DNA from: Gammaproteobacteria bacterium
GTDB taxonomy: Bacteria > Pseudomonadota > Gammaproteobacteria > Steroidobacterales > Steroidobacteraceae
DNA: 64,000 nt
Assembly (NCBI GenBank): GCA_028870355.1
Contig: JAGWPU010000075.1
Location: 2,350-66,349, forward strand
Reading direction: 5' to 3'
In this document: piece after piece, positions 3,493 through 62,585 of the stretch
Numbering within the stretch: the first letter of the stretch is position 1
Layout: every line of letters begins with the position of its first letter
Notes under the pieces: model-generated
Databases searched by the model: none
Seen by the model: only the letters and a program-made list of their open reading frames with translations
What the model was told of the DNA's origin: nothing
Position numbers and translations under genes: made by a program

Positions 3493-4803
3493 TCATCGCG
3501 CCTCGATCCGCATCAGAAGGTCGGACCGCAGGCGATAATTGATCCGCGCCTCGATCCGCGGGGCCTCGTCGCCGATCGGCGTCAGGCGGAACCGCCGGGT
3601 CATCACCGCGAGGTGCGTCGCCATCTCGAAGGTCGCGAGCGCCTCGCCGATGCAATGTCGCGGCCCGACGCCGAACGGGAGATAGACGAACCGGTGGCGC
3701 GCCGCCTCCGCCGCCGCATCGAAGCGCGATGGATCGAAGCGCTCCGGATCCAGCCAATGCGCGGGATGCCGGTGCATGAAGTAGGGGCTGATGAACACGT
3801 CGGTCGCCGAGGGCAGTGCAATCCCGTGCAGAACGTCCGGGGCGACCGTCCGCCGGGTCATCATCCAGCCCGGCGGACACAGTCTCAGGGACTCCTTGAT
3901 CACCTGCTGGCCGAGGACCCATTCTTCGAGGCCCTCGAGACCGAGCGTCGCCAGATCCGGCAATCCCGGGGTCGATGCGGCGAGCTGTTCCTGGATCTCG
4001 GGGTGCCGGCCGAGCAGGTACCAGGTCCAGGTCAGCGCCGACGCGGTCGTCTCGTGTCCCGCGACGACCAGCGTGATCAGTTCGTCGATCAGTTGCCGGT
4101 CGCTCATGCGTTCGCCGGTGTCCTTGTCCTCCGCCTCGAGCGCCATCTCGAAGAAATCGAACCGCTTCTCCGCCGGGTTCGCCCGACGACGGTCGATCAA
4201 TTCCTGCAGGATCGTGCCGAGGGATCGGATCCGGTACGCGAATTTCAGGTCCCGATCCGCCTCCGTGTGCACGATGGAGAACGGGTTCTCGCCGAAGCGC
4301 TCTCGAATCAACGCCAGATCGTCGCCGAAGATCGCACGCAGATTGATGTCGAGGGTCAGCTCGCTCGCCGCCTCGGTCACGTTCAGCGGCTCGCCGCGGC
4401 GCGCGACCGTCGCCCAGCGCAACGCGTATTCCTCGTTGGTCTGCGCGATCGCGCCGCCGAATCCGGACAACACCCGCCGGTGGAACGCGGGCTGCAACAT
4501 CCGGCGCTGCCGTTGCCAGTGATCGCCGCTGCTCGTCATGATGCCCCGGCCCAGCAGGATCGAGATCTGGTCCGTGCCGACTCCCTTGACGTAGTTGCGA
4601 TGATTGGTGAGCAGCACGCGCTTCACCGCCTCCGGGTCGTTCACGACGTAGCTATAGGTGCGGCGACGCGGCGAATACACGCGAAAGAAATCGCCGTAGA
4701 CCGGCAGCCAATCGCGGATCCTGGTGAGGGTTTCCTCGGACGCGCCGAGATCGAACGACTCGGGCGGCTCCGGCACGGGGACTGGGGCGCCAGGGGAGTG
4801 CAT
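3493..4803 (-). CDS. Cytochrome P450 monooxygenase
   Basis: Starts at Met216 of ORF 3493..5448 (436 aa). I-helix AGHETT, ExxR (ESLR), PERFDPSRF and heme-thiolate loop FGVGPRHCIG. The part of the ORF upstream of Met216 is Arg/Gly-rich junk. Confidence 0.9.
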   Translation of the reverse strand: MHSPGAPVPVPEPPESFDLGASEETLTRIRDWLPVYGDFFRVYSPRRRTYSYVVNDPEAVKRVLLTNHRNYVKGVGTDQISILLGRGIMTSSGDHWQRQRRMLQPAFHRRVLSGFGGAIAQTNEEYALRWATVARRGEPLNVTEAASELTLDINLRAIFGDDLALIRERFGENPFSIVHTEADRDLKFAYRIRSLGTILQELIDRRRANPAEKRFDFFEMALEAEDKDTGERMSDRQLIDELITLVVAGHETTASALTWTWYLLGRHPEIQEQLAASTPGLPDLATLGLEGLEEWVLGQQVIKESLRLCPPGWMMTRRTVAPDVLHGIALPSATDVFISPYFMHRHPAHWLDPERFDPSRFDAAAEAARHRFVYLPFGVGPRHCIGEALATFEMATHLAVMTRRFRLTPIGDEAPRIEARINYRLRSDLLMRIEAR

Positions 4804-4835
4804 CGATCGAATTCTGCTCGGCCGCTCCCGCGACC

Positions 4836-4851
4836 GGGATACGTATTTCCC
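4836..4851. promoter_or_regulatory. AT-rich imperfect palindrome GGGATACGTATTTCCC (perfect core ATACGTAT) in the P450/ferredoxin divergent region
   Basis: Read directly. It is the only AT-rich patch in the 126-bp intergenic region 4804..4929. It could be an operator or shared -10 region. No regulator gene is adjacent. Confidence 0.25.
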
Positions 4852-4929
4852 ACGATGGCCGCGCACTGGCCTCACTGCGCGGCTTCGGGCGATCCTGCGA
4901 GCGCACATTCCAAGATCCCGAGGGTTCCG

Positions 4930-5256
4930 ATGGTCAAGGTCACGTTCGTCGACGCGGCAGGCGCATCCCAGACGATCGACGCGCAGCCCGGTGCGACACT
5001 GATGGAGACCGCGATCGAGAACGCCGTCCCGGGCATCGTCGGCTTCTGCGGGGGGATGTGCAGCTGCGCGACCTGCCACTGTTACCTCGATGCCGAGTGG
5101 GATTCGCGGATTCCCGCGCCGGGCGCCGACGAGCTCGACTCGCTGCGCCGCGTGCTCGACCGCCGGCCACGCAGCCGGCTCGCGTGCCAGATCAGGATCG
5201 AACCCGGCCTGGACGGCCTTCGGGTCGAACTGCCCGCGAGACAACGCAACCCGTAG
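4930..5256 (+). CDS. [2Fe-2S] ferredoxin, adrenodoxin/putidaredoxin type
   Basis: Last 108 codons of ORF 3406..5256, starting MVKVTFVDAAG. Cys pattern C-x5-C-x2-C-x36-C (FCGGMCSCATCH ... RLACQ). Divergent from the P450 gene. Confidence 0.85.
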   Translation: MVKVTFVDAAGASQTIDAQPGATLMETAIENAVPGIVGFCGGMCSCATCHCYLDAEWDSRIPAPGADELDSLRRVLDRRPRSRLACQIRIEPGLDGLRVELPARQRNP

Positions 5257-5294
5257 ATCCGCGGCCACGAACGATCCCGGTCCCCGATGCCCCT

Positions 5295-5393
5295 CTACTC
5301 CAGCCCGTGGCCGTTCGGTCCGCGCTCGCGGACCCACAGGGCAAGCGCCGCCGCCAGCGCCGCGACCGCCGTGAGGAAAAAGAACCCGAGCAT
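5295..5393 (-). CDS. Possible 32-aa single-pass membrane peptide (MLGFFFLTAVAALAAALALWVRERGPNGHGLE)
   Basis: My own translation; the ORF is too short for the supplied track. One hydrophobic helix is followed by a charged tail. G/C occupies nearly all third positions. An in-frame stop lies 17 codons upstream with no alternative start. No clear SD. Confidence 0.25.
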   Translation of the reverse strand: MLGFFFLTAVAALAAALALWVRERGPNGHGLE

Positions 5394-5441
5394 CGGCGCA
5401 TAGCCCGCCGGATTCGCCGCCCCGGCGCCGGCACGGAACGC

Positions 5442-5459
5442 ATGTCATGGATCCGTCAT
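5442..5459 (+). promoter_or_regulatory. Pho-box-like direct repeat ATGTCAT-GGAT-CCGTCAT
   Basis: Two 7-bp direct repeats with 11-bp periodicity. They match the enterobacterial PhoB box CTGTCAT-A(A/T)A(T/A)-CTGTCA(C/T) at 12 of 14 repeat positions. The repeat is oriented toward the TBDR gene and ends 164 nt upstream of its start. Phosphonate genes lie downstream. Confidence 0.45.
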
Positions 5460-5622
5460 CGGCGCGTCGTCAAAGCGCCATCGTGGGCTCACCACAATGG
5501 ATGCCTCGCGGTTCGACCGACCCCGTGCGGATTTCGCGCGGCCTGGTACGCACCGCCGCGCACCGGCGACCCCGGGCGCCGGGATGGGAATTCCGTCAAC
5601 TCAGACATCCAGGGAGACACCA

Positions 5623-8328
5623 TTGAACAGCAGAATGAAGCTCGGTCTCGCGATCGCGGCGATCCTCGGCGGCAGCACGGTGAACGCCTTTGCCGCGACC
5701 GATCCGGGCCCGTCCGAGCGCACTGCGGCGGCTTCGGATTCCGTGTCGAGCTCCGCGCTCCAGGAAGTCGTCGTGACCGCGCAACGTCGCGCGCAATCGG
5801 TCCAGGACGTGCCGATCACGATTCAGGCGATCACCGGTGCGCAGCTCAACCAACTCAGCGTGACGACCTTCGACGACGTGCTGAAATATCTGCCGAACGT
5901 GACCTTCGGGTCGAACGGGCCGGGCCAGGGCAGCATCTTCATGCGCGGGATGAGCGCGGGCTTCGCGGGCAACCAGTCGAGCGCGACTTTCGCCTCGTTT
6001 CCGAACGTCGCGACCTACCTCGACGACCAGTCGCTGCAGTTCCCGGCGCGCAATCTCGACGTCTACCTGGTGGACATGCAGCGCATCGAGGTGCTCGAGG
6101 GTCCGCAGGGCACGCTGTTCGGCGGCGGTGCCGAAGCCGGTGCGATTCGCTACATCACGAACAAGCCGGTGCTCGACCGGACCGAGGGCGTGACCGAGGC
6201 GAGTTACGGCGTGACCGCGCACGGCGATCCGAACCACGCGCTGAGCGCGGTGCTGAACGCACCGTTGATCGCGCACAAGCTCGCGGCCCGCGTGGTGATC
6301 TACGACGATAGGCGCGGCGGCTACATCACCAACGTGCCGAGCACCTTCACGCGCAGCAACAACGATACCGGCAACTACTACGGCGGCGTTCGTCCGGGCG
6401 CGACCGGCTTGTGCCCGAACGGCTTGCCGACCCACACTGGCTTCTGCGTGCCGGCGTCGAACCAGATTGCGAACAACTACGCGATCGCGGGGCGCGCGTC
6501 GAATCCGGTCCAGTACGGCGGTGCCCGCGCGGAGCTGCTCTACCAGATCGACGACGACTGGAGCGCGTTGATCACGCAGAGCTACCAGGACATGGAAGCC
6601 GATGGCCTGTCGACGCAATATCCGATCGGCTCGGACGGGCAGACGCTCGGACCCTGGGAGGTCACTGCGTTCGTGCCGGCGGTGAACAAGGACCGCTTCG
6701 AGAACACCGCGTTCACGCTGAACGGCAAGCTCGGCGCGCTGCACGCCGTGTACACCGCCGGCTACCTCGTGCGTCACATCGACCAGACCAACGATTACTC
6801 GAACTACACGCGCAGCGCCTACGGCTTCTACTACACCTGCAGCGGCGGCTCGGGTTTCGGCTCCGGGACCCCGTCCTCGACGGTGCCGACCTGCTATTCC
6901 CCGATCACGTCCTGGCACGACCAGGTGAAGAACACCCACCTGAGCAACGAGTTCCGCCTCAGCACGCCGAGCAACTGGCGGACCCGCGGGATCGTCGGGC
7001 TGTTCTGGGAGGATTTCGAGATCTACGACAACATGAACTTCCTGTACAAGACGATTCCGTCGTGCACGCCGACGAACCTCGCGAACGCGCTCGCGGGCGG
7101 CTTGCCGTGCGTCGGTAACGTCGGCCCGCTGCCGGGCGCGTACGCGTCGGACCCGAGCGTGCGCAACGACAACGTCGCGTTCGGCGAGGACATTCGCCGC
7201 GGCTACAAACAGACCGCGGTGTTCGCGTCGATGGACTACGACATCGTCCCGAAGGTGCTGACGATCACCGGCGGTGCCCGCTACTACCGCTACAGCGAAG
7301 ACGAGGTGGGCTCGAAGTACACGTCCCCGCTCGCCTGCGCCGACGTCGCCAACGGTTGCTATGCGGGCACGACCAGCATCAATGCCGAACACGAGAACGC
7401 GGTCTACACGGGCGTCAAGGGCCGCGCGAACATCACCTGGCACGTGACCCCGGACATCATGGTCTACTACACGTTCTCGCAGGGATTTCGCCCGGGCGGC
7501 TTCAACCGTACCGTCGCGAACAAGGCGAAGGATGCGAATGGCGTGCCGCAATACTCCTCGCCGCTCAGCTACAAGCCCGACTCGCTGACCAACAATGAGA
7601 TCGGCTGGAAGGCCGAGGTATTCGGCCATCACCTCCTGCTGAACGGCTCGTTCTATCGGATGGACTGGAACGACGTGCAGTTCGCGCTATTCGATCCGAC
7701 GATCCTCGGCAACACCACCTTCGTCGTGAACGGCCCGAACTACCGGATCGACGGCTTCGAACTGCAATTCGTCGCGAAACTCCCCGGCGGATTCACGCTG
7801 CAGGGATCGGGCTCCTGGAACAGCGCGAACCAGTCCTCGTCGCCCTGCCTGATCGACAATTACGCGAGCTCGTCCGGGGTGAAGTCGCCGAATTTCGGCC
7901 AATGCATCACCGAGGTCAAAGGGTCCCCGTTCCCGAACCCGTTCGGCGCGCTGAACACCCGTCCCGCGTTCTCGCCGCCGCAGGAGTTCAACCTCCGCGT
8001 GCGCTACGACTGGGACTACGAGGCGTATCGGGGCTTCGTGATGATCGGTGCGAACCACATCGGACACATGACCAACGAGCCGGCGAGCTTCGTGAACGGC
8101 GATACGGTGCAGGTTCCGTACACGACCTGGCTGAAGTACGATCAGCCGGGGTACACGACCTACGACGGCTCGGTCGGCATCGCGAAGGGCGCCTGGACCG
8201 CGCAGGTGTACGGACAGAACCTGTCCAATTCGGACGCGAGTTTGTTCACCTCCTCGTCCCAGTTCATCAAGTCCGAGGTCCCCCTGCGGCCCCGGGTGAT
8301 CGGCGTCAAGATCGGTTACCGCTTCTGA
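5623..8328 (+). CDS. TonB-dependent outer-membrane receptor (pair 1)
   Basis: ORF 5497..8328. SD AGGGAG lies 6 nt before TTG 5623; ATG 5635 is an alternative start. Signal peptide ends STVNAFA. Plug motifs VVVTAQRRAQSVQDVPI, RIEVLEGPQGTLFGGG and IRYITNKP. C-terminal beta-signal KIGYRF-stop. Confidence 0.9.
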   Translation: MNSRMKLGLAIAAILGGSTVNAFAATDPGPSERTAAASDSVSSSALQEVVVTAQRRAQSVQDVPITIQAITGAQLNQLSVTTFDDVLKYLPNVTFGSNGPGQGSIFMRGMSAGFAGNQSSATFASFPNVATYLDDQSLQFPARNLDVYLVDMQRIEVLEGPQGTLFGGGAEAGAIRYITNKPVLDRTEGVTEASYGVTAHGDPNHALSAVLNAPLIAHKLAARVVIYDDRRGGYITNVPSTFTRSNNDTGNYYGGVRPGATGLCPNGLPTHTGFCVPASNQIANNYAIAGRASNPVQYGGARAELLYQIDDDWSALITQSYQDMEADGLSTQYPIGSDGQTLGPWEVTAFVPAVNKDRFENTAFTLNGKLGALHAVYTAGYLVRHIDQTNDYSNYTRSAYGFYYTCSGGSGFGSGTPSSTVPTCYSPITSWHDQVKNTHLSNEFRLSTPSNWRTRGIVGLFWEDFEIYDNMNFLYKTIPSCTPTNLANALAGGLPCVGNVGPLPGAYASDPSVRNDNVAFGEDIRRGYKQTAVFASMDYDIVPKVLTITGGARYYRYSEDEVGSKYTSPLACADVANGCYAGTTSINAEHENAVYTGVKGRANITWHVTPDIMVYYTFSQGFRPGGFNRTVANKAKDANGVPQYSSPLSYKPDSLTNNEIGWKAEVFGHHLLLNGSFYRMDWNDVQFALFDPTILGNTTFVVNGPNYRIDGFELQFVAKLPGGFTLQGSGSWNSANQSSSPCLIDNYASSSGVKSPNFGQCITEVKGSPFPNPFGALNTRPAFSPPQEFNLRVRYDWDYEAYRGFVMIGANHIGHMTNEPASFVNGDTVQVPYTTWLKYDQPGYTTYDGSVGIAKGAWTAQVYGQNLSNSDASLFTSSSQFIKSEVPLRPRVIGVKIGYRF

Positions 8329-8366
8329 ACACCGGTCCCGGCAACCCGATCACTTCGGCTAGAATC

Positions 8367-8392
8367 GGCGGCGGGCCTCCCGGCCCGCCGCC
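8367..8392 (+). terminator. GC-rich stem-loop GGCGGCGGGCC-tccc-GGCCCGCCGCC between TBDR1 and sulfotransferase 1 (possible partial terminator or mRNA-stability element)
   Basis: Perfect 11-bp inverted repeat with a 4-nt loop, read directly. There is no U-tract after it. Confidence 0.35.
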
Positions 8393-8410
8393 TGCCGCTT
8401 GCGGAGTCGC

Positions 8411-10459
8411 ATGATGTCAGCCGCCGCCGAACCCGCCCTGTCGCCCCCGGAGGAACCGCGGGTCGAGCGTGAAGTGCGGCGCATCCGCGACCTCACCCGG
8501 GGTGGCGAGCACGCGCGAGCGCTGCGGGCTGCCGAAGCCCTCGCGGCGACGGTTCCCGAGAATCGCGACGTGCTGTATGCACTCGCATTCAGCCAGCGGC
8601 ACCTGCAGGACACCGCCGCCGCGCTCGCGACGCTCGAGCGGCTCGAACGCGTGCATCCGCACTTCAGTCGCCTGCACGAAGAACGCGGACTGTGCTACGT
8701 GGCGCTGCGGGATGCGCCGCGCGCGATCGCCTCTTTGCTGCAGGCGGTCAACCTGAACCCAGCGCTCCCCAACAGCTGGGCGATGCTCGAGAAGCTCTGG
8801 CGGATCGGCGGCGATCGCGCGAGCGCCGACACGGCGGCGGAACACGTCGCCACCCTGGGTCGCCTCGCGCCGGAGGTGGTGCGCGCGACCTCGCTGTTCG
8901 CCGATCGAGACCTCGGTCCGGCGGAAGCCCTGGTGCGCGCGCGCCTGCGACACCAGGGTGACGACGTCGAGGCGATGCGCCTGCTCGCGCGGATCGGCAT
9001 CGCGCGTCATGTCCTCGACGACGCCGAACTGTTGCTCGAGGCCGTGCTCGACCTCGCGCCCACGTATCGTGCGGCCCGCCACGATCATGCGTTCGTGCTG
9101 GTCGAGCGCCACAAGTACCGCGAGGCACGCGCGCAACTCGAGCGCCTGCTGGCGGAGGACCCACGGCATCGCGGCTACCGCGCGCTGTTCGCGGCCACCT
9201 GCGTCGGGCTCGGCGAGCAGGCTCGCGCGATCGACCTGTACCGCGAACTGCTCGGGGAGACGCCCCAATCGGCCGACCTGCTGCTCTCGCTCGCCCATGT
9301 GCTGAAGACCGTCGGGGATCGCGACGCGGCGGTCGCGGCCTACCGCGCCGCCGCGGCGGCGCGCCCGGAATTTGGCGACGCCTACTGGAGCCTTGCGAAT
9401 CTCAAGACGTATCGATTCGAGGAGGGCGAGGTCGTGCGCATGCGCACGCTCGAGGCCCGGGTCGACCTCGGCGCCGACGATCGGATCCATCTGTGTTTCG
9501 CGCTCGGCAAAGCGCTCGAGGATCGTGCGAACCATGCCGACTCCTGGCGCTACTACGAGCGCGGCAACGCGCTGAAGCGCGCCACGAGCGGATACCGCCC
9601 CGAGGTGATCGAGAGCAATACCCGGGGCCAGATCGCGGTGTGTACGCGCGAATTCTTCACGGCCCGCGCCGGATGGGGTGCGGGCGACCGCTCGCCGATC
9701 TTCATCGTCGGTCTGCCGCGGTCCGGTTCGACCTTGATCGAGCAGATCCTCGCATCGCATTCCGCGGTCGAGGGGACCGAGGAGCTCGCCGACGTCCACC
9801 GGATCGTGCTCGAACTGCAGGGCCGGGAGCCGAACCCCGACGACCCGCGCTACCCCCGCGTGCTCTCCACGATGACCGCGGCCGAGTTCCGCCGACTCGG
9901 CGAGCGCTACCTGACCGACACCCTACCGTACCGTACCGGCCGGCCGCACTTCATCGACAAGATGCCGAACAACTTCCGTCACATCGGCCTGATCCACCTC
10001 ATGCTGCCGAACGCGAAGGTCATCGATGCGCGGCGCGAGCCGATGGCCTGTTGCTTCGGCAATCTCAAGCAGTTGTTCGCGAACGGGCAGGAATTCAGCT
10101 ATTCGATCGACGACATCGCGCGCTACTATCGCACCTACCTGGAACTGATGCGCCACTGGGACGCGGTGCTGCCGGGCAAGGTCCTGCGCGTACTGCACGA
10201 AGAGGTGGTCGAGGATCTCGAGGGCAGTGCGCGGCGCATCCTCGATTTCTGCGAATTGCCGTTCGAGACGGCGTGCCTCGAGTTCTACCGGAGCGGACGC
10301 AGCGTACGGACGCCGAGTGCCGAGCAGGTTCGAAGGCCGATCTACCGCGATGGCTTGAATCAATGGAAGCACTACGAACCGTGGCTCGACGCCCTGCGCG
10401 ATGCGCTCGGAGACGCGCTGACCCGGTATCGCGAACCCGTCGCCGGACATCCCCTGTGA
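8411..10459 (+). CDS. TPR-repeat protein with C-terminal PAPS-type sulfotransferase domain (pair 1)
   Basis: ORF 8399..10459. GGAG lies 4 nt before ATG 8411. The N-terminal ~400 aa are TPR-like helical repeats. The C-terminal domain has GLPRSGSTL (5'-PSB loop), IDKMPNNF, IDARREPMACCF (3'-PB-like RRxP) and VRTPSAEQVRRPIY. No signal peptide. Confidence 0.85.
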   Translation: MMSAAAEPALSPPEEPRVEREVRRIRDLTRGGEHARALRAAEALAATVPENRDVLYALAFSQRHLQDTAAALATLERLERVHPHFSRLHEERGLCYVALRDAPRAIASLLQAVNLNPALPNSWAMLEKLWRIGGDRASADTAAEHVATLGRLAPEVVRATSLFADRDLGPAEALVRARLRHQGDDVEAMRLLARIGIARHVLDDAELLLEAVLDLAPTYRAARHDHAFVLVERHKYREARAQLERLLAEDPRHRGYRALFAATCVGLGEQARAIDLYRELLGETPQSADLLLSLAHVLKTVGDRDAAVAAYRAAAAARPEFGDAYWSLANLKTYRFEEGEVVRMRTLEARVDLGADDRIHLCFALGKALEDRANHADSWRYYERGNALKRATSGYRPEVIESNTRGQIAVCTREFFTARAGWGAGDRSPIFIVGLPRSGSTLIEQILASHSAVEGTEELADVHRIVLELQGREPNPDDPRYPRVLSTMTAAEFRRLGERYLTDTLPYRTGRPHFIDKMPNNFRHIGLIHLMLPNAKVIDARREPMACCFGNLKQLFANGQEFSYSIDDIARYYRTYLELMRHWDAVLPGKVLRVLHEEVVEDLEGSARRILDFCELPFETACLEFYRSGRSVRTPSAEQVRRPIYRDGLNQWKHYEPWLDALRDALGDALTRYREPVAGHPL

Positions 10460-10479
10460 TCGATGAGGAACCCGTATCC

Positions 10480-11283
10480 GTGAATCTCGCACACCATTTC
10501 GACCTCGTGATCTTCGATTGGGCCGGAACGACCGTGGATTTCGGCTGCCGCGCACCGGTCGACGCGCTGCTGGAGGCGTTCCGGCAGCACGGCGTCGCCC
10601 TGACCGAACCCCAGGTCCGCCGCGACATGGGCAAGGCGAAGGCCGACCACGTGCGCGCGCTGCTCGGGGAGCCCGAAGTCGCCGCCGCGTGGACCGCGGC
10701 GAACGGCGCGCCGGCGAGCGCCGCCGACTGCGATGCCCTGGTACGCGAACTCGGCCCACTGATGCGCGAGCGCGCGGGTCGAACGGCGACGCTGATCGAC
10801 GGCATGGTGGAGACGGCCGCGGCGCTGCGCGCGGCGGGGCTGCGGATCGCCTCGTCGACCGGCTACACGCGCGAGATGATGGCGCCGGTGCTCGAACGCG
10901 CCGCGGCGCAAGGGTACGCTCCCGAGCACCTGGTGTGTTCCGGAGAGACGCCGCAGGGACGGCCGAGCCCGCTGATGATCTACAAGGCCTGCGCCGAACT
11001 CGGCGTCTGGCCGCTGAGTCGCGTCGTCAAGGTCGACGATTCCGAGGCGGGCGTCGCCGAAGGCGATGCCGCCGGCTGCCTGAGCGTCGGTGTCGCGGCA
11101 TCCGGGAACGGGGTCGGTCTCGCGGCGCCGGTCCTCGAGGGATTGCCGGCCGTCGAACGACGCGCCCGGATCGACGCGGCGGCCCGCGCGCTCTATGCGG
11201 CCGGTGCCGACATCGTGATCGACACGGTCGCCGACCTGGTGCCGGCGATCGAACGGCATCTTCGCATCGGCCGAGGTCGCTGA
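10480..11283 (+). CDS. phnX: Phosphonoacetaldehyde hydrolase (phosphonatase)
   Basis: 267 aa from GTG 10480, with GAGGA 10 nt upstream. An alternative GTG at 10456 overlaps the sulfotransferase stop as GTGA. HAD motif I is [14 protein letters not shown], followed by SSTGYTR and [12 protein letters not shown]. The overall layout matches PhnX as I recall it. Confidence 0.85.
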
Positions 11284-11285
11284 GC

Positions 11286-12395
11286 ATGTCCGACGCCGTG
11301 CTGCTGACGCCGGGTCCGCTGACGACCGAGGCCGAAGTGAAGGCCGCGATGCAGGTCGACTGGGGCTCCTGGGACGGCGCGTTCAACGACCTGACCGCGT
11401 CCGTCTGCCGGGACCTCGTCGCGATCGTCGGTGCCGAGCGCGATCACGACTGCGTGCCGCTGCAAGGCAGCGGCACCTTCGCGGTCGAGGCGGCACTCGG
11501 AACACTGGTGCCGAGGAGTGGCAAGGTCCTGGTGCCCGACAACGGCGCGTACTGCCAGCGGATCGCGCGCATCCTCGGCTGCCTCGGCCGCGAAGCGCGG
11601 GTGATGCCGTTTGCCGAGGACGCCGCGGTGGACCCCGACCGGATCGACGCCGCGCTCTCGACCGATCCCGCGATCACCCACGTCGCGCTCGTGCACTGCG
11701 AGACCAGCACCGGCATCCTGAATCCGCTCGAGGCCATCGGCGCCGTGGTCGCCGCCCATGGGCGTCGGTTGATCGTCGATGCGATGAGTTCCTTCGGCGC
11801 ACTGCCGATCGACGCCCGCACGCTCGCGTTCGACGCATTGATTGCCGCATCCGGAAAATGTCTCGAGGGCGTTCCGGGGATGGGCTTCGTGATCGCACGT
11901 CGCGACGTGCTCGATGGCAGCACGGGCCAGGCGCATTCGCTCGCACTCGACCTCGCCGATCAGTGGCAGTACCTGCGCAGGACCGGACAGTGGCGGTTCA
12001 CGCCGCCGACACACGTCGTCGCCGCGCTGCGGGTCGCGATCGATCGCTACCGTACGCAGGGTGGGCAGGCGGCGAGGCTCGCCCGCTACGCCGGGAACTG
12101 CGCGGCCCTGCTCGACGGCATGCGCGCACTCGGCTTTGCGCCGTTCCTGCCGCGGCATCTGCAGGCGCCGATCATCGTCACGTTCCATTCGCCGCCGGAT
12201 CCGGCCTACGACTTCGGACAATTCTATCGGCGCGTGCGCGAACGGGGATTCGTCCTGTACCCGGGGAAGCTGACCCGGGTCGAAACCTTCCGGGTCGGCT
12301 GCATCGGCGCAATCGATGCGGCGACGCTGCGCCGCGCGGTGGAGGCCATCGGCGCGACGGTTCGCGAGATGGGCATCCGACGAATCGCGCCATGA
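11286..12395 (+). CDS. phnW: 2-aminoethylphosphonate--pyruvate transaminase
   Basis: 369 aa. N-terminus [14 protein letters not shown] and PLP-lysine region [15 protein letters not shown] are typical of class V aminotransferases of the PhnW type. It starts 2 nt after the phnX stop. Confidence 0.9.
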
Positions 12396-13432
12396 CGGCC
12401 GCGCGGACGATCCGGGCGAGACTCGTGATCGCGCTGCTGCTCTGCGGCCTCGCGGCCGCAGCCGGCAGTCGGGCCGCGGTCGTCACGGTCTACAGTGCCG
12501 ATGGGCTGCGCGACGGCCGGCCGAACTGGTTCGGCACGATGTTCGCGGCATTCGAGCGGCGCACCGGGATCACGGTGCAGTACGTCGAGGCGGGCTCCGG
12601 CGTGATCGTGAACCGCATGCTCGCCGAGCGCGCGGCGCCACAGGCCGACGTGCTGGTCACGATCCCACCGTTCATGCAGGTCGCGGCCGACGCTGGCGCC
12701 CTGCGGCCGCTGATCCTGGCGCCGGCGGACAGTGCCGCGCTCGGCGCTCCCCACGCGCCGGCGCTCTGGTATCCGCTCGCGGACGACTACTCGGCGTGGA
12801 TCTACGACGCAGCGGCGCTACCCGCGCCACCGGCGAGCTTGGCGGCGCTGCTCGCACCGACGTTCCGCAATCGACTTCAATACTCGACGCCTGGACAGGC
12901 CGGCGACGGCACGGCGGTGTTGCTGCAGGCGTTCGAGGCCTTCGGCAGCCAGCGCGCGGGCCTCGCTTACCTGAGACGCTTGCAGGCGAACAACCTCGGG
13001 CCCTCCGCCTCGACCGGCCGCCTCGCTGCGCTCGTCGACAAGGGCGAGATCTGGGTCGCCAATGGCGACGTGCAGATGAGCTACTCCCAGCAGCGTGAAT
13101 ACCCGAACCTGAGGCTGTTCTTTCCCGCGGGCCCGGACGGTCGTCGGCTCGCCGTGCGGCTGCCGTACCAGATCGCGCTCGTCCGCGGCGCGCCGCACGA
13201 ACACGCTGCGCTGCAATTGATCGCGTTCTTGCTGAGCCGGCCGGCGCAGGCGCGGCTCTACGACCTTGCGCGTGCGTTCCCGGCGCGCCACGATGTCCCG
13301 CCGACCACGCCGGCCGCGCACGCGCTCGAGCACGTGATCGACGGCGTCCGAATCTGGCAGCCCGACTGGACCCGTGTCGCGAAACGGCTCGGACACGACG
13401 TCGCGCTCTGGCGCCAAGCGACCGAACGGTGA
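12392..13432 (+). CDS. phnS: 2-aminoethylphosphonate ABC transporter substrate-binding protein
   Basis: 346 aa with a signal peptide. [42 protein letters not shown] and [16 protein letters not shown] closely resemble Salmonella PhnS as recalled. ATGA overlap with phnW. Confidence 0.85.
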
Positions 13433-13436
13433 ACGG

Positions 13437-14570
13437 ATGACTCCGGGACCCCGCCAGCCGTCCGGCCGCGATCGCGTCCCGCCGCAGATCGGCGTGCACG
13501 CGCTCAGCGTCCGATACGGCGACCACCTCGCTCTCGATCGGGTCGACCTCTCCGTCACCGCCGGCGAGGTCGTGGTGCTCCTCGGAGCATCCGGATCCGG
13601 GAAGACGACCTTGCTGCGCGCGATCGCGGGGTTCACCGTACCGACCGTCGGCCGGATCCATCTCGGCTCGACCGACGTGACCGCCGCGCCACCGCACGCC
13701 CGCGGACTCGGTCTGGTCGTGCAGAACTACGCGCTGTTTCCGCACCTTCGCGTCGCCGACAACGTGGCCTTCGGGCTGCACGCCCGCAAGCGTCCGCGCG
13801 CACAGATCGAGCGCACCGTCGCGCGCTTCCTCGAGATGACGGGCATGGCCGCGCACGCGCAGCGCTATCCGCACGAGCTGTCCGGCGGACAGCAACAACG
13901 GGTTGCGATCGCCCGCGCGCTCGCGATCGAGCCGCCGGCCCTGCTGCTCGACGAACCGCTGTCGGCGCTCGACCCGCCGCTGCGCGCCGGCATGCTCGAA
14001 GAGTTGCAGCGACTGCACTCGCAACTGCCGCAAACGGCGATCGTGTACGTGACCCACGATCAAACCGAAGCGATCTCGATCGGCCATCGAATCGTCTTGC
14101 TGAACGGAGGCCGGATCGTCGCCGACGGAACCCCGCGCAATCTGCACGATACGCCGCCGAACCGGTACACGGCCGAGTTCTTCGGACAGGCGAATCTGCT
14201 GCCCGCACGCATCGTCGATCGATCGCTGGAGGCCGACACCGACCCGGTCCGAATCGCCGTGCGGATCGCGGATCGGACGATCTGGGCGCGCCGCAGCGCC
14301 GACGCGCCGGCAAGCGGCGCCGCCTTGCTGTGCTTGCGACCACACGATCTGCAGCTCGAGGTCCCGGTCGAGGGGACGCCCGACGGCAATCATCTGGACG
14401 GCATCGTACGCTCCGCGCAATGGCTCGGCGCATCGCAGCGCGTGGTCGTCGAGGCGGGATCGTCGACGATCCGGGTCGATCGCCCGGCGAGCGAACCCTT
14501 GCCCGCGCCCGGCACACGGGTGAGGGTGAGCTTCCCTGCCGAGCGCGCGGTCGTTCTCGCGGACCGCTGA
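13437..14570 (+). CDS. phnT: 2-aminoethylphosphonate ABC transporter ATP-binding protein
   Basis: Starts at Met22 of ORF 13374..14570. Walker A GASGSGKTT, signature LSGGQQQR, Walker B LLLDEP. The C-terminal regulatory (TOBE-like) domain is present. Confidence 0.85.
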   Translation: MTPGPRQPSGRDRVPPQIGVHALSVRYGDHLALDRVDLSVTAGEVVVLLGASGSGKTTLLRAIAGFTVPTVGRIHLGSTDVTAAPPHARGLGLVVQNYALFPHLRVADNVAFGLHARKRPRAQIERTVARFLEMTGMAAHAQRYPHELSGGQQQRVAIARALAIEPPALLLDEPLSALDPPLRAGMLEELQRLHSQLPQTAIVYVTHDQTEAISIGHRIVLLNGGRIVADGTPRNLHDTPPNRYTAEFFGQANLLPARIVDRSLEADTDPVRIAVRIADRTIWARRSADAPASGAALLCLRPHDLQLEVPVEGTPDGNHLDGIVRSAQWLGASQRVVVEAGSSTIRVDRPASEPLPAPGTRVRVSFPAERAVVLADR

Positions 14571-15409
14571 TGGAGCTCGCTCGCAGGCCCTGGCGGCCGC
14601 TGGTGGTCTCGGTGCCGTTCGTGGTGCTCGGGATCATTTTTCTCTATCCGTTCGCATTGCTGACCGTCGAGGCATTCGCCAGGCCCGATGGCGGCTACGG
14701 GCTCGGCACCTTCGCTGCGATCCTCGCCGGTCACGCCTTTCACGGCGCCTTGTTCGCGACGCTTCGGATCGCGTTGACGGCGACGGCGGCATGCCTCGGC
14801 CTCGGATCGGCGCTCGCCTTGCTGATCCGGTTCGCCGCATTCCCCGGTGCACGTGCGCTCGGGCGTCTGGTCGACGTCTATCTCGCGTTTCCGTCCTTTC
14901 TGGTCGCGCTCTCGCTGACGTTCCTCTATGGCAATTCGGGCGTCGTCCACACGCTGTGGACGTCTGCGCTCGGCGGATCGGCCGCGGCCGCATCGCGCAG
15001 CTTCCTGTACGGCTTCTGGGGCGTGGTGCTCGCGGAGGTCACCTATTACACGCCATTCGTGATGCGACCGGTGCTCGCGGCCCTCGATGTGATCGACCGC
15101 TCGCAGCTCGAGGTCGCGAGCAGCCTCGGCGAGCGTCCCTGGGGCGTGCTGCGCCGGGTCGTGATCCCGGAACTCGTGCCTGCGCTCATCGCCGGCGGGA
15201 GCTTGTGCCTGCTGCTCACGATGAACGAATTCGGGATCATCCTGGTGATGGGCGTGAAGGACGTGATCACGCTGCCGATGATGATCTACGGCAAGGCGAT
15301 CGACGAGTTCGATTATCCGGCCGCGAGCGCCGTCGCGATCTGCAACGTCGCGCTGTCGCTCGGTCTGTACTTCACCTACCGCCAGGCGCTCGAGCGCGTT
15401 CCGCGATGA
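14570..15409 (+). CDS. phnU: 2-aminoethylphosphonate ABC transporter permease
   Basis: Starts at Met81 of ORF 14330..15409 (MELARRPWRPL). Polytopic, with the EAA-type loop SSLGERPWGVLRRVVIPEL. Its start overlaps the phnT stop (TGATG). Confidence 0.8.
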   Translation: MELARRPWRPLVVSVPFVVLGIIFLYPFALLTVEAFARPDGGYGLGTFAAILAGHAFHGALFATLRIALTATAACLGLGSALALLIRFAAFPGARALGRLVDVYLAFPSFLVALSLTFLYGNSGVVHTLWTSALGGSAAAASRSFLYGFWGVVLAEVTYYTPFVMRPVLAALDVIDRSQLEVASSLGERPWGVLRRVVIPELVPALIAGGSLCLLLTMNEFGIILVMGVKDVITLPMMIYGKAIDEFDYPAASAVAICNVALSLGLYFTYRQALERVPR

Positions 15410-16233
15410 GTGAACTGATCCACTCGCGACCGGCGCGGCGACTCCTCGCGGGGATCGGCCTGATCGTGACCGCGATCGTGTTCGGCCTGCCGCTGATGAC
15501 GTTGCTCCTCGCGAGCATCGCGGGGGAATGGACTCGGGCGCTGCCCACGACCCTGACCGTCGCACACCTGCGCGCCGCGCTCGGCGGCACGCCGCGCGCG
15601 GCGCTGTGGCACAGCCTCGCGACGGGGATCGGCGCGACGATCGGCGCGCTCGTGCTCGGGGTCTGGGGAGCCCTCGTGTCGCGTCGCGCGCCGGCACCGG
15701 TCCGTCGCGGGATCGACGCGCTGTTTCTGATGCCGGTCGCGATCCCGTCGGTCTCGATCGGCCTCGCGTTGCTCGTCGCGTTCAGCCGTCCGCCATTGCT
15801 GTTGAACGGGACGGTCGCGCTCGTCGGGATCACTCACGTCGTACTGGTCACCGCCTATGCGTATGCCAGCGCGCAAGCGGGCATCGCCCGGCTACCCGCG
15901 GCCGTCGAGGACATGGCCGGCAGCCTCGGCGCCACGCCCTCGCGGGTGCTCGTGCGCGTGACCCTGCCGCTGTTGCTGCCGCAGTTGCGCGCCGCGGCCG
16001 CGCTGGGCTTCGCGCTGTCGATGGGCGAACTCGGTGCGACGATCATGGTCTATCCGCCCGGCTGGGCCACCGCACCGGTCGAGATCTTCTCGCTGACCGA
16101 CCGGGGCGCACTGTTCACGGGTGCCGCGGTGAGCGTCTGGCTGCTCGCCGGTACGTTCGGCGCCCTGTGGCTGTTCGATCGACGCCGATCGAGCCGCCGC
16201 GCTGGGTCCGCGCGCGACTTCTCGGGGACTTGA
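15406..16233 (+). CDS. phnV: 2-aminoethylphosphonate ABC transporter permease
   Basis: 275 aa from MSELIHSRPA in ORF 14791..16233. EAA-type loop AGSLGATPSRVLVRVTLPLL. ATGA overlap with phnU. Confidence 0.8.
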   Translation: MSELIHSRPARRLLAGIGLIVTAIVFGLPLMTLLLASIAGEWTRALPTTLTVAHLRAALGGTPRAALWHSLATGIGATIGALVLGVWGALVSRRAPAPVRRGIDALFLMPVAIPSVSIGLALLVAFSRPPLLLNGTVALVGITHVVLVTAYAYASAQAGIARLPAAVEDMAGSLGATPSRVLVRVTLPLLLPQLRAAAALGFALSMGELGATIMVYPPGWATAPVEIFSLTDRGALFTGAAVSVWLLAGTFGALWLFDRRRSSRRAGSARDFSGT

Positions 16234-16245
16234 CGGGTCGCTCGC

Positions 16246-17198
<953 letters not shown>

Positions 17199-36710: not shown

Positions 36711-39338
36711 TCAGAACTTCTGACCGAACTTGAGCTCGTAGGTCCGCGGCTGCATCGGCATGATGTACGGCTGGTTGCAGGTCACCGGCGTACAGGCCGC
36801 GAACGTCCCGAGCTGCGCATGCGTGTCGAACGCATTCGAGATCGTGAAGTCCACGTGCAGATTGTCGCGGGTGAATCCGGCCGAGAGGTTCACGATGCTG
36901 TACGGCGGCAGCTCGCTCAGGTGCTGCTGGCCGTTCGGCCCCGGCGTATAGAACACCGGATACAGCAACGGCACCGACGCATCCTGATAGAGGTAGGCCG
37001 CCTGGCCGTAGCCGTTCCACTTCCCGAACGGGAAGTTGTAGCGCGCGACCAGGTTCGCCTTCACCCGCGGAACGACCGGCAGGCGGTCTCCGGCCGACGC
37101 GAGCGGTCCGGTCGTCACCGTGCCGTCCGCGTACGGGCCGTTCACTTGGTTCGGACAACTGGTCTCGAGCTGGGTCTGGCTTCCCGGAACCAGGGTGCCG
37201 CAGAAATTCTGCGTGAGCTTCGCGTCGAGGAACGTCGCGCTGGTGCTGAAGAACCAGCCGTGCCCGGCGAGCCACTCGGCGTCGGTCTCGATGCCCTTGA
37301 TCTGCGCGGAGGCCGCGTTCTGCACGACGGTCACGCTGTTCGGCCCGAGGAACGAGAACTGGAAGTTGTTCCAATCCTCGAGGTAGGCCGCCCCGTTCCA
37401 CCGCAAGGTGTTGCCCAGCCACTGGGTCTTCCAGCCGAACTCGTAGTTCGTCAGCGTATCGGGCTGATACGGCGGGTAGATCGCGTGGATCGCCGCATCG
37501 TAGACGCGGTTCGCGCCACCGGGACGATAGCCGGTCGAATACGTGAAGTAGACCAGGTGGTTCGTGTCGAACTTGTAGGTCAGCGTCGCCCGCCAGGTAT
37601 GACCGCTCCCCGACGTGCCCGCGTTGAGGTCCGTGCACGGGGCGAAATGGAACGGCGCATAGCTCGTGCTCGGCGTACCGCCGACCGGCCCGCAGGCCAG
37701 CATGCCCGAATGGTATCCGGTATTCGCCTGATAGGCGGCCGAATAGCCGTAAAAGCCTTGCAACGAATTGTCGTACCGGTAGAACCGCACACCGTCGGTC
37801 GTCGACCAGTGCTTGGTGATGTCCCAGGTCGCCTGGCCGAAGATCGCCTGGTCGCGGTCGACCCGCTCCTCGTCGGTCAACCAGATCGTGTTGTTCTGCA
37901 GCCCCGGCATCGACAGGCTCTGCGCGAGACCCTGCGTGTTGTACGCGTACGGATTGCCGTTCAGGCCCGGCACCACGTAGTCCTGCCAGATCTCGTGCAC
38001 CTGCCGCTCCGCGAACACGCCGACCGTGCCGTGAACCGGCAGGTCTTGCGGCGTCGAGACCCGCAACTCGTTGCTCCACTTGGTGAAATGGCCGCGATTG
38101 ATCGTGAATTCCTGCGGCATGACCGGCTGGTTGGCGTTGTTGACCCAGTAGTGACCCGACCCATAGTACTTGTCGTAGAAATACGAGTAGTCGGAGTAAT
38201 CGGCGATCGAGTGCTGGTTGCGCGCGAACCACCCCCCCGCATAGGTGATGTCGAAATCATGCACCTTGCCCTCGATCGTCAAGGTGCTCAACGAGAACGA
38301 ATCCTGGGTGTTCTCCGGACCGAAATGCGTGACCTTGAGGTACCCCACCGCGGGGTCGTAGCTGAAGAAGCCGTTCGCGCCCATCGTCTGGCCCATCACC
38401 ATCGGGGTCACGGTCCAGTCGTCGCCGATCTTGAAGCGCATCGTCGCCCGGCCGCCCTTGGTGCCGACCGTGTTGTAGTCGCTGTTGACGGACGATTGAT
38501 TGCTCAGGGTCTGCCCGGTCGCTCCGGTCCAGGTCCGGAAACTACGCTGACCGTTCACGATGCCGGCGTTGACGTTCGTGCCGGCGACATTGCTGATGAA
38601 GCCGGGGTCGTGTTCGTCCCAGCCGACCAGGCGCACGGCCGCGGTATCCGACAACGGCAGGTTCACGTAGCCTTCCGCCTCCCAGCCGACACCGCCGTGG
38701 TAGATCGAGGTGACGCCGACGTCGTAGGACCCGGAGAACTTCGAGGGATCCGGTTTGTTGGTGATGATGCGGATCGTGCCGGCCTCGGAACTCGATCCGT
38801 ACAGGGTCCCCTGCGGGCCCTCCAGCACCTCGATGCGGGCGATGTCGTACATATGCAGATCGACGGTGCCGTCGATCGTCGTGACCGGCATCTCATCGAG
38901 GTAGGTCGCGACGCTCGGCTGCGAGGCCGAGTGGTTGCCGTCCTGGCCGCTGACCACGCCACGCATGTACACGTGCGTCGCGCCGATGCCGTTGCCGCCC
39001 TGGCCGATGCTCTTCACCTCGGTCACGCCCGGCAGGTACGCGACGTAGTCGTCGAGGTTCACGATGTTGAGCTGCTGCAACCTCTTCGTGCCGATCGCCT
39101 CCATGCTGATCGGAATGCTCTGCATGTTCTCGGCGACCTTGGTCGCGGTCACGATCACCGCACGCAGCGTATCGGTCGTATCGCTCGCTGCGGCCTGTGC
39201 GTGAACGGCAACCGGCGCCGCCCCGGCGAGGATCGCGGAGATCGCGGTCGCGAGCGGCAACACCCGTCCGCCGCGGACGCGGGGTGCTCCGTCACGACGC
39301 CATCCGCCCAACGGTCCTGGTTCTCTTCGGTTTCTCAC
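36711..39338 (-). CDS. TonB-dependent outer-membrane receptor (pair 2)
   Basis: Full ORF, 875 aa. Signal peptide ends PVAVHAQAA. VIVTATKVAENMQSIPIS, RIEVLEGPQGTLYGSS and IRIITNKP. Ends KFGQKF-stop. The ATG overlaps the sulfotransferase stop (ATGA). Confidence 0.9.
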   Translation of the reverse strand: MRNRREPGPLGGWRRDGAPRVRGGRVLPLATAISAILAGAAPVAVHAQAAASDTTDTLRAVIVTATKVAENMQSIPISMEAIGTKRLQQLNIVNLDDYVAYLPGVTEVKSIGQGGNGIGATHVYMRGVVSGQDGNHSASQPSVATYLDEMPVTTIDGTVDLHMYDIARIEVLEGPQGTLYGSSSEAGTIRIITNKPDPSKFSGSYDVGVTSIYHGGVGWEAEGYVNLPLSDTAAVRLVGWDEHDPGFISNVAGTNVNAGIVNGQRSFRTWTGATGQTLSNQSSVNSDYNTVGTKGGRATMRFKIGDDWTVTPMVMGQTMGANGFFSYDPAVGYLKVTHFGPENTQDSFSLSTLTIEGKVHDFDITYAGGWFARNQHSIADYSDYSYFYDKYYGSGHYWVNNANQPVMPQEFTINRGHFTKWSNELRVSTPQDLPVHGTVGVFAERQVHEIWQDYVVPGLNGNPYAYNTQGLAQSLSMPGLQNNTIWLTDEERVDRDQAIFGQATWDITKHWSTTDGVRFYRYDNSLQGFYGYSAAYQANTGYHSGMLACGPVGGTPSTSYAPFHFAPCTDLNAGTSGSGHTWRATLTYKFDTNHLVYFTYSTGYRPGGANRVYDAAIHAIYPPYQPDTLTNYEFGWKTQWLGNTLRWNGAAYLEDWNNFQFSFLGPNSVTVVQNAASAQIKGIETDAEWLAGHGWFFSTSATFLDAKLTQNFCGTLVPGSQTQLETSCPNQVNGPYADGTVTTGPLASAGDRLPVVPRVKANLVARYNFPFGKWNGYGQAAYLYQDASVPLLYPVFYTPGPNGQQHLSELPPYSIVNLSAGFTRDNLHVDFTISNAFDTHAQLGTFAACTPVTCNQPYIMPMQPRTYELKFGQKF

Positions 39339-41401: not shown

Positions 41402-41476
41402 GAGAACGGTGTTCTTCGAATGTTCCAGCCGATGACCTTCCCCCGGAAGGCTCCCATCTGAGCCGTTATCGCGATA

Positions 41477-41484
41477 CTTGTCAA
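41477..41484 (-). promoter_or_regulatory. TTGACAAG (perfect -35 hexamer) about 78 nt upstream of sulfotransferase 2
   Basis: Read on the minus strand. A weak -10 (TCAGAT) follows after 17 nt. The same octamer occurs at 62578..62585. Confidence 0.2.
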
Positions 41485-41586
41485 CGCCGGCGTTGCGCTA
41501 CGCCAACGTGGGACATACCGTTCGAAGCAATGAACCCATCTCCTGCGTTGCTCATGCGAGACAGTCGCCTCCGGGCGACCGCCCCC

Positions 41587-43221: not shown

Positions 43222-43339
43222 GCGCGCTCCCGCTCCCGCACGGGCACCGCCGGGCGACGGTTGCCAATGAAGTGCATTTGTGTTCTCGTGGGGGCACTTC
43301 GCGCTCGTCGCGCCCCCGTTGGACGATCATCGCACGATC

Positions 43340-59979: not shown

Positions 59980-59992
59980 GCGCACCCCGCGA

Positions 59993-62506: not shown

Positions 62507-62577
62507 CCCCTGCTCGTTGTTCGCCCGGCGACTCGCACCGGTCGCTGATCGGGCCATGCTCCTACCCTTCGCGGCGG

Positions 62578-62585
62578 CTTGTCAA
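62578..62585 (-). promoter_or_regulatory. TTGACAAG (perfect -35 hexamer) about 74 nt upstream of TBDR3
   Basis: Read on the minus strand in the sulfotransferase 3 / TBDR3 gap. No convincing -10 was found. The same octamer occurs at 41477..41484. Confidence 0.2.

Follow-up and report, generated by a model that had tools for sequence, protein, structure and literature searches.

A string of eight plus-strand genes in a 64,000-nucleotide stretch of DNA from a gammaproteobacterium of the Steroidobacteraceae (assembly GCA_028870355.1, contig JAGWPU010000075.1, positions 2,350 to 66,349; 69% G+C; hereafter the window) joins the gene for a TonB-dependent receptor, TBDR1, to a sulfotransferase gene, ST1, and to phnX, phnW and phnSTUV, and is preceded by a Pho-box-like array of direct repeats. 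Taken as a whole, the string is with moderate probability a phosphate-starvation-activated locus for the uptake and catabolism of compounds of the 2-aminoethylphosphonate (AEP) type. Two lines of evidence carry this reading, namely the conservation of the repeats in front of the receptor in related genomes and the occurrence of AEP genes, in varied sets, beside the receptor and its sulfotransferase. Metagenome-assembled Steroidobacteraceae and unclassified Gammaproteobacteria account for all the relatives that public genomes supplied, and a near-identical genome, or the same one, is present in ENA (ERZ27236853 k141_401922).

A preliminary description of the locus, made from the sequence alone, had reported two 7-bp direct repeats with 11-bp spacing that resemble a PhoB box and point towards TBDR1. 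The sequence ATGTCAT-GGAT-CCGTCAT is indeed found at 5442-5459 on the plus strand and agrees with CTGTCAT-N4-CTGTCAY at 12 of 14 positions (6/7 + 6/7), a consensus that is known from other proteobacteria. The repeats and their spacing stand as described, but the pair makes up the leading half of a longer array, in which four heptamers follow one another in 11-bp phase (ATGTCAT at 5442, CCGTCAT at 5453, GCGTCGT at 5464 and GCGCCAT at 5475); the last two of these form a second, degenerate box at 5464..5481 on the same strand. The site at 5442-5459 is the only match with three or fewer mismatches to the consensus in the 64-kb window, and the summed score of the array, 20, is also unique there. 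For matches with at most two mismatches the expectation is 0.33 in a shuffled window, and at least one such match is contained in 28% of dinucleotide-preserving shuffles; under a first-order Markov model 0.175 arrays of equal score are expected per simulated window, and about 16% of the simulated windows hold one. The GGATCC palindrome at the centre of the site was also considered as an inverted-repeat operator, for example of the LysR type, and was rejected, because it is not conserved among orthologs while the direct repeats are.

The site was then followed through related genomes, one per species. The scan comprised 27 loci encoding TBDR1 relatives (455 kb, both strands searched), to which 8 further loci were added via ST1 orthologs; all loci together, numbered here with the prefix L, amount to about 40 and to about 0.6 Mb. 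Within the 455 kb, 13 of the 15 sites that match the consensus at 12 or more of 14 positions are located within 450 bp upstream of a TBDR1 ortholog, a zone covering 2.4% of the total, and all but one of these 13 lie on the receptor's strand. The 8 further loci contributed 8/8 such sites upstream of receptor orthologs, and the pooled count is 21/23 within 450 bp upstream of a TBDR1 ortholog across the roughly 40 Steroidobacteraceae loci, again with a single site off the receptor's strand. Where the receptor gene is tandem-duplicated (L037), each copy has its own Pho-box-like site (3902-3930 and 7018-7035). The best ortholog sites reach 14/14 and are identical to the canonical CTGTCAT-N4-CTGTCAT. 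The L006 site, CTGTCATCAAACTGTCAT, is nearer to the canonical consensus than that of the window, and it is this perfect CTGTCATCAAACTGTCAT with which the heptamers of the window's second box align in the upstream alignment. The more distant orthologs in general approach the canonical sequence more closely and have spacers rich in A/T, as in L006, in L010 and L038 (both TTGTCATAAATCTGTCAT), in L039 (CTGTCATAATTCTGTTAT) and in L012 (CTGTCATTTTTCTGTAAC); L015 also has such spacers. Elsewhere the upstream sequence shows little conservation (36% mean column identity in the alignment), and the sites are therefore not mere inherited sequence, as the surrounding non-coding DNA is barely alignable. The preliminary description had named absence of the repeat from orthologous loci as a result that would speak against it; the repeat is present there, and often closer to the consensus. 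Judged from these genomes, the position and conservation of the site are far beyond chance.

The distribution has its limits. The motif is mostly missing from orthologs at about 55% identity or below, and no such site was found upstream of the second sulfotransferase-receptor pair in L035. The two other sulfotransferase-receptor pairs of the window likewise have no Pho box, since the window holds no second match with three or fewer mismatches. No pst or pho genes were seen in the window or in any retrieved locus, including the extended window contig (L028), and a tblastn search of the retrieved loci with approximate Escherichia coli PhoB, PstS and PhoU queries returned only one OmpR-family gene, 38% identical. 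No box was found upstream of psiE in L039 or of a few other genes.

The eight genes proposed earlier were borne out by protein-family searches. TBDR1 (5623..8328, with an alternative start ATG at 5635) has the Pfam domains PF07715 (plug, 2.2e-16) and PF00593 (TonB-dependent receptor beta-barrel, 1.1e-23), and ST1 (8411/8414..10459, about 682 amino acids) combines an array of tetratricopeptide repeats (TPR) with a Sulfotransfer_3 domain. They are followed by genes for the phosphonoacetaldehyde hydrolase PhnX (10480..11283; TIGR01422, 311 bits, cutoff 220), the 2-aminoethylphosphonate--pyruvate transaminase PhnW (11286..12395; NF010006, 575 bits, cutoff 296), the periplasmic AEP-binding protein PhnS (12392..13432; NF011620, 379 bits, cutoff 310), the ATPase PhnT of an ATP-binding cassette (ABC) transporter (13437..14570) and its permeases PhnU (14570..15409; NF011624, 336 bits, cutoff 247) and PhnV (15406..16233). 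Thus PhnX, PhnW, PhnS and PhnU are equivalog-level matches above the cutoffs, while PhnT and PhnV are assigned by their best NCBIfam match and stay below the TIGR cutoffs (TIGR03258, 363 bits, cutoff 499; TIGR03255, 219 bits, cutoff 359). By these assignments phnX-phnW-phnSTUV is a complete predicted gene set for AEP import and breakdown. The widest gap in the string, 82 nt, separates TBDR1 from ST1; ST1 and phnX are 20 nt apart, and thereafter the spacing is 2 nt and 4 nt or the genes overlap by 1 to 4 nt. According to the map of open reading frames phnV is the last gene of the string and is followed by a convergent czcD-like gene. A gene for a PhnR-type regulator was seen neither within the phn string nor directly beside it in the window.

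The receptor itself could not be assigned to a substrate-defined subfamily, all NCBIfam TonB receptor models scoring far below their cutoffs, and its PDB sequence matches (FyuA, Cir and PhuR) are confined to the plug region. Its surroundings are more informative. The order TBDR then ST is kept in nearly every locus that extends far enough, and AEP genes stand within 10 kb of this pair in about half of the informative loci, as unrelated sets in differing orientations. The set phnX-phnW-phnSTUV directly follows the sulfotransferase gene in the window, L001, L003 (with long-read frameshifts), L005, L009, L032 and L034. A different set, consisting of a pbfD-like oxidoreductase of the TIGR03364 family that depends on flavin adenine dinucleotide (FAD), a GntR-type 'phosphonate utilization' regulator (PhnR), PhnA, PhnY, a Na/Pi-cotransporter-like protein and PhnW, is encoded in L010, L011, L026, L038 and L040; PhnA is phosphonoacetate hydrolase and PhnY phosphonoacetaldehyde dehydrogenase. 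The pbfD-like oxidoreductase together with PhnX occurs in L017, L035/36 and L037, an arrangement that resembles the pbfD-phnX clusters (PMC10590968). L035/36 additionally encode a TauD-family and HD-domain pair that, at the Pfam level only, is like the oxidative PhnY*/PhnZ route. The appearance of AEP genes in such varied sets beside the pair is the strongest support for the functional proposal made in the preliminary description, that TBDR1 supplies the outer-membrane step for a phosphonate under phosphate limitation. Such a pattern would be difficult to account for if the receptor did not work together with aminophosphonate use, and the proposal is supported here by evidence of a comparative kind; every computational refutation test that was run favoured it.

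Two other gene sets recur beside the pair. Directly behind the sulfotransferase gene in L004, L006 and L007 are the genes for a glutamine-synthetase-like ligase, an aldehyde dehydrogenase and an iron-type alcohol dehydrogenase, which in L012 are found upstream and on the other strand; this set resembles a gamma-glutamylation route for a small amine. Among more distant relatives sulfoacetaldehyde acetyltransferase (Xsc) is found beside the receptor-sulfotransferase pair in L017, L020, L024, L026 and L040. An amino-acid permease gene goes with it in L017, L020 and L024; in L040 it is joined by an acetate kinase gene, and there the Xsc set stands together with the phnA/phnY/phnW genes. All these neighbouring sets would act on small 2-aminoethyl compounds or their products, which speculatively suggests a receptor family for AEP-like zwitterions.

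The promoter was read from the sequence. The preliminary description had proposed TCAAAG (5470-5475) as the -10 element; this hexamer falls inside the heptamer array, and CACAAT at 5493..5498 on the plus strand, 11 nt after the fourth heptamer, is the better candidate. CACAAT is kept in the nearest relatives (L001, L005, L032 and L034); for other clades the alignment shows TAAAAC/TAGAAC, displaced upstream by about 5 nt. The leader, formerly estimated at about 140 nt, would shorten to about 118 nt with a transcription start predicted from CACAAT. The segment 5505-5625 is not unusually structured (z = -0.97), and an Rfam search of 5200-16400 (E <=1) found no riboswitch or known RNA. The start of TBDR1 is probably TTG 5623, which aligns with ATG/GTG starts of orthologs and has a ribosome binding site, AGGGAG, at 5611-5616; the gene calls of public assemblies use either start (897 or 901 amino acids).

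The short interval between TBDR1 and ST1 bears on whether the phn genes share the receptor's transcript. The hairpin that had been pointed out at 8367..8392 is present as a stem and is homologous to true terminators, but its U-tract has been lost in the window clade. The element at 8360..8392 on the plus strand consists of an A-tract, TAGAATC, and an 11-bp G+C stem-loop (8367-8392) that folds better than shuffled sequences (z = -3.17), and is followed by the tail TGCCGCTTGCGG, which has no U-tract. A terminator scan of 5000-17000 did not call the hairpin, and terminator-like sites in that region were at background level. Most orthologs have a canonical intrinsic terminator at this place, its G+C stem flanked by an A-tract (TAGAATCC) and by 5 to 8 consecutive T (homologous hairpins with T-runs in L004, L006, L007, L011, L016, L025 and others). 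G+C-rich sequence stands in place of the T-run in the window and in L001, L005 and L034. The spacers of L003 and L009 measure only 35 to 39 nt and contain no comparable G+C stem-loop. In this comparison the six loci with a decayed T-run or a lost hairpin are exactly those that have phnXW-STUV after the sulfotransferase gene, in a sample that is small and whose loci are not phylogenetically independent. By comparison with its orthologs the hairpin is an ancestral terminator, and the pattern of decay fits relaxed termination once the downstream genes came to depend on the receptor's promoter. Partial termination, giving more receptor than downstream products, is likely.

A conserved TAGAAT(C) directly precedes the hairpin in L004, L006, L007, L010, L011, L016, L025, L035, L037 and L038. 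It could serve as a -10 element for the sulfotransferase gene, or as an RNase E/Hfq site of an RNA derived from the 3' untranslated region. Its use as a -10 element for ST1 was considered less likely, and the A-tract of the ancestral terminator is favoured, because TAGAAT pairs with the T-run in orthologs.

In the model that follows from these observations a PhoB-type response regulator would bind up to four heptamers spaced by 11 bp (5442-5481), the array taking the place of the -35 element, and would activate a promoter whose -10 is probably CACAAT. The resulting transcript would encode TBDR1; the hairpin, deprived of its U-tract, would probably attenuate rather than stop transcription, and read-through would express ST1 and phnX-phnW-phnSTUV. 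TBDR1 would then be the energised, high-affinity gate through which AEP or a closely related aminophosphonate passes the outer membrane, PhnS-TUV would move the compound over the inner membrane, PhnW would convert it to phosphonoacetaldehyde, and PhnX would release the phosphate. The steps assigned to PhnSTUV, PhnW and PhnX are established knowledge of these families. The parts of the model are not equally firm: binding of a PhoB-type regulator at the array appears likely, and this is the part we hold with the most confidence; a function of the receptor in AEP use is rather probable; and reading of the phn genes from the receptor's promoter, although favoured, is supported with somewhat more reserve.

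A number of observations weigh against this model. Taken alone, the window site is not beyond chance; the second box is weak (4/7 + 4/7), and the earlier caveat about the spacer stands, for the window spacers are GGAT, CGGC and CAAA and do not show the A/T richness expected. A scan of 5000-17000 for the sigma-70 consensus found no promoter. The Pho box tracks the TBDR orthogroup and not phn: the box and the TBDR-ST pair occur without phosphonate genes within 10 kb in L006, L012, L015, L022 and L039, and conversely the AEP-linked loci L017, L026 and L040 have no clear box. The two other TBDR-ST pairs of the window have unrelated neighbours, and therefore the pairing itself is not specific for phosphonates. 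That the motif is a chance match without function accords with the finding of an equal match in more than a quarter of shuffled windows, but we consider it very improbable in view of the strong positional enrichment and the conservation across loci whose flanking non-coding DNA is otherwise unalignable. It is also conceivable, if quite unlikely, that the phased repeats are bound by another OmpR-family regulator that responds to a signal other than phosphate. Regulators of this family besides PhoB also bind direct repeats about one helical turn apart, and the naming of PhoB as the binder rests on likeness to the consensus of other proteobacteria; on the other side, the best sites are identical to CTGTCAT-N4-CTGTCAT with A/T spacers, and the genes downstream release phosphate from phosphonate.

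A more substantial objection concerns the extent of the transcript. The boxes may control the receptor only (ancestrally also a divergent FAD-oxidoreductase gene and a transporter gene of the major facilitator superfamily, MFS), with transcription ending at 8367-8392 and ST1 and the phn genes being read from a separate promoter. This would agree with the association of the box with the receptor, with the canonical terminator (A-tract and T-run) in most orthologs and with the 11 G+C pairs and the fold score of the window's own stem, which is very stable and might still terminate. We nevertheless regard a separate promoter as unlikely, since the T-run has decayed in the window clade, the hairpin is missing in L003 and L009, and the two gaps preceding ST1 and phnX are short and have no promoter-like site in the scan. 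Slightly less improbable, though still unlikely, is the alternative that TBDR1-ST1 is a phosphate-starvation module for another substrate, such as a phosphoethanolamine-like organophosphate ester or taurine-like sulfonates, its adjacency to phn genes reflecting a shared scavenging island. AEP, which is small enough for porin passage, would then enter through porins, and a review does take porins such as PhoE to be the way in for phosphonates at the outer membrane (PMC10574752). The pairs that stand beside the ligase/dehydrogenase set and beside Xsc are in line with such a role. What argues for the AEP-linked receptor instead is that about half of the informative loci have AEP genes at a distance of 10 kb or less, in several unrelated sets, a linkage that we infer to be far above chance for a pathway expected about once per genome.

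Phosphonates are a major organic phosphorus pool, and the inner-membrane importers and catabolic enzymes that serve their use are well studied. The phosphonatase pathway is Pho-regulated in Salmonella and Enterobacter, while pseudomonads have substrate-induced control of the LysR type (PMC3266647). The phnR-phnSTUV-phnWX locus of Salmonella and Enterobacter specifies the same PhnSTUV importer, PhnW and PhnX as the window, but in the window the order is phnX-phnW-phnSTUV and the genes are appended behind a TonB receptor, a sulfotransferase and what appears to be the receptor's promoter. The AEP transporters AepXVW, AepP and AepSTU described by Murphy et al. (2021), whose genes stand beside phnWX or phnWAY genes, are Pho-regulated in part (PMC8316502). 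All of them are inner-membrane transporters, and the outer-membrane step is not treated in that paper, the term 'outer membrane' not being in its text; the window locus adds a proposed receptor for this step. A PhoE-type porin would share with TBDR1, as proposed here, a Pho-regulated outer-membrane entry for phosphorus compounds, but PhoE is a passive diffusion channel, whereas TBDR1 has the plug-and-barrel architecture of a TonB-energised transporter. A further parallel is found in Caulobacter crescentus, in which PhoB-regulated TonB-dependent receptors, thought to import alternative phosphorus sources, have no assigned substrates (PMC11208175). Like TBDR1 they are outer-membrane TonB-dependent receptors under PhoB control, which for TBDR1 is predicted from the motif; the Caulobacter account makes no link to phosphonate catabolism or to a sulfotransferase, whereas the context in the window points to a specific substrate class.

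No TonB receptor for AEP was found described in the literature. The locus points to an energised outer-membrane route of phosphonate scavenging, likewise not found described, and what is new in it relative to known Pho-controlled loci headed by TonB receptors is, as far as the genome comparison can tell, the repeated association with aminophosphonate catabolism and the constant sulfotransferase partner. A receptor orthogroup that has a conserved Pho box and stands beside several AEP pathways is a concrete candidate for an energised, high-affinity outer-membrane step, and the locus also exposes a very large uncharacterised family of TPR proteins with a tyrosine-sulfotransferase-like domain.

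ST1 belongs to this family. It matches PF13469 Sulfotransfer_3 (168 bits, 5.5e-49) and TPR families in Pfam, and the full length of its catalytic domain, about 240 residues, can be aligned with human TPST1/2 and the related entry 8w5z (E = 3e-10). Like the human enzymes it has the PRSG(S/T)TL loop that binds 3'-phosphoadenosine-5'-phosphosulfate, in the form PRSGSTL; the segments G-x-EE, DKMP, ARRE and PSAEQV align with matching TPST segments, and the aligned Glu, Lys, Arg and Ser positions of TPST are kept. Its TPR region is most like the substrate-binding TPRs of O-GlcNAc transferase among PDB sequence matches, and ST1 is predicted to be cytoplasmic because no signal peptide was seen. ST1 has the look of an active protein-tyrosine sulfotransferase whose TPRs form a substrate-binding arm, and the combined features suggest a cytoplasmic protein or peptide sulfotransferase. 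A bacterial protein-tyrosine sulfotransferase is known in RaxST. ST1 differs from TPST1/2 and RaxST in its long N-terminal array of O-GlcNAc-transferase-like TPRs, in the lack of a signal peptide or membrane anchor and in being always encoded beside a TonB receptor.

Two further pairs of this kind are encoded on the minus strand of the window, in both of which the sulfotransferase gene is upstream of the receptor gene. The second pair (TPR-sulfotransferase 39335-41497, receptor 36711-39356) adjoins the gene for a DMFA2_C-domain protein (41587-43326), and the third (TPR-sulfotransferase from 62673 to beyond 63998, receptor 59993-62581) that for a prolyl-oligopeptidase-family protein (57946-60027). 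The three sulfotransferases are 44 to 52% identical to one another, the three receptors only 28 to 30%. ST1 has at least 8000 homologous matches, and by this measure the TPR and tyrosine-sulfotransferase-like family is very large and, in the genomes compared, is systematically encoded beside TonB-dependent receptors; no account of such a pairing was found in the literature. Acidic tyrosine motifs in TBDR1 (for example EDFEIYDN and YDWDYEAY) were considered as signs of sulfation and set aside as unspecific, similar motifs being present in paralogs. A bolder proposal, which we think doubtful, is that the receptor and its TPST-like partner constitute a two-gene outer-membrane module in which cytoplasmic tyrosine sulfation, of the receptor precursor or of an exported partner, would be needed to capture 2-aminoethyl zwitterions (AEP, elsewhere perhaps taurine or phosphoethanolamine). 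The Pho-controlled core, with the FAD-oxidoreductase and MFS genes on one strand and the TBDR and ST genes on the other, would then be a platform that repeatedly recruits aminophosphonate pathways.

The region in front of the array has a history of its own. The intergenic region that had been delimited as 5257..5622 is indeed the sole large gap (in a crude gene call based on G+C at third codon positions, 5257-5583 is the sole gap of more than 250 nt in the window), but part of it, 5299-5435, is the 3' remnant of a deleted MFS transporter gene. This remnant, on the minus strand, comprises the last 40 or so codons; it matches L005 4539-4675 at 86% in blastn and MFS residues 393-425 in tblastn. 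The G+C-rich deletion junction lies at 5417..5441 and resembles both ancestral flanks: 5417-5435 aligns to L005 4657-4675 as well as to L005 7258-7274, and the junction ends a few bases before the first heptamer. About 2.6 kb was lost in the window lineage, with the gene for an FAD-dependent oxidoreductase (PF12831) and most of the MFS gene. Both genes are intact and divergent from the receptor in L001, L002, L004, L005, L006, L009 and L010, where the Pho boxes sit in the control region shared with them, and the deleted arrangement is likewise seen in the independent assemblies L028 and L030. At about 2650-2760 of L039 a near-consensus TATAAT stands beside the Pho boxes and reads on the same strand as the divergent FAD-oxidoreductase gene, so that, wherever the two divergent genes are retained, the boxes may act on their promoter as well.

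Some minor features of the surroundings may be added. In L035/L036 the segment 12818-19705, convergent with the pair, encodes two MFS transporters, an oxidoreductase of the DAO family, a PhnX-like hydrolase and a member of the enolase superfamily, besides the HD-domain protein and the TauD-family dioxygenase of the PhnY*/PhnZ-like pair. A DUF5690 membrane protein, which may be another aminophosphonate permease, adjoins the pbfD-like/phnA/phnY/phnW genes in L026 and L040 and is encoded upstream of the receptor ortholog in L021, a contig that stops before phn genes could be seen. Ahead of the gap that contains the array the window has a cytochrome P450 gene in divergent orientation (3493-4830, minus strand) and a gene for a 2Fe-2S ferredoxin (4930-5256, plus strand), both identified by protein-family search. 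This pair (3493-5256) is present in the window and in L001 and missing at the same place in L005, L032 and L034, and the region upstream of the receptor is therefore variable among relatives.

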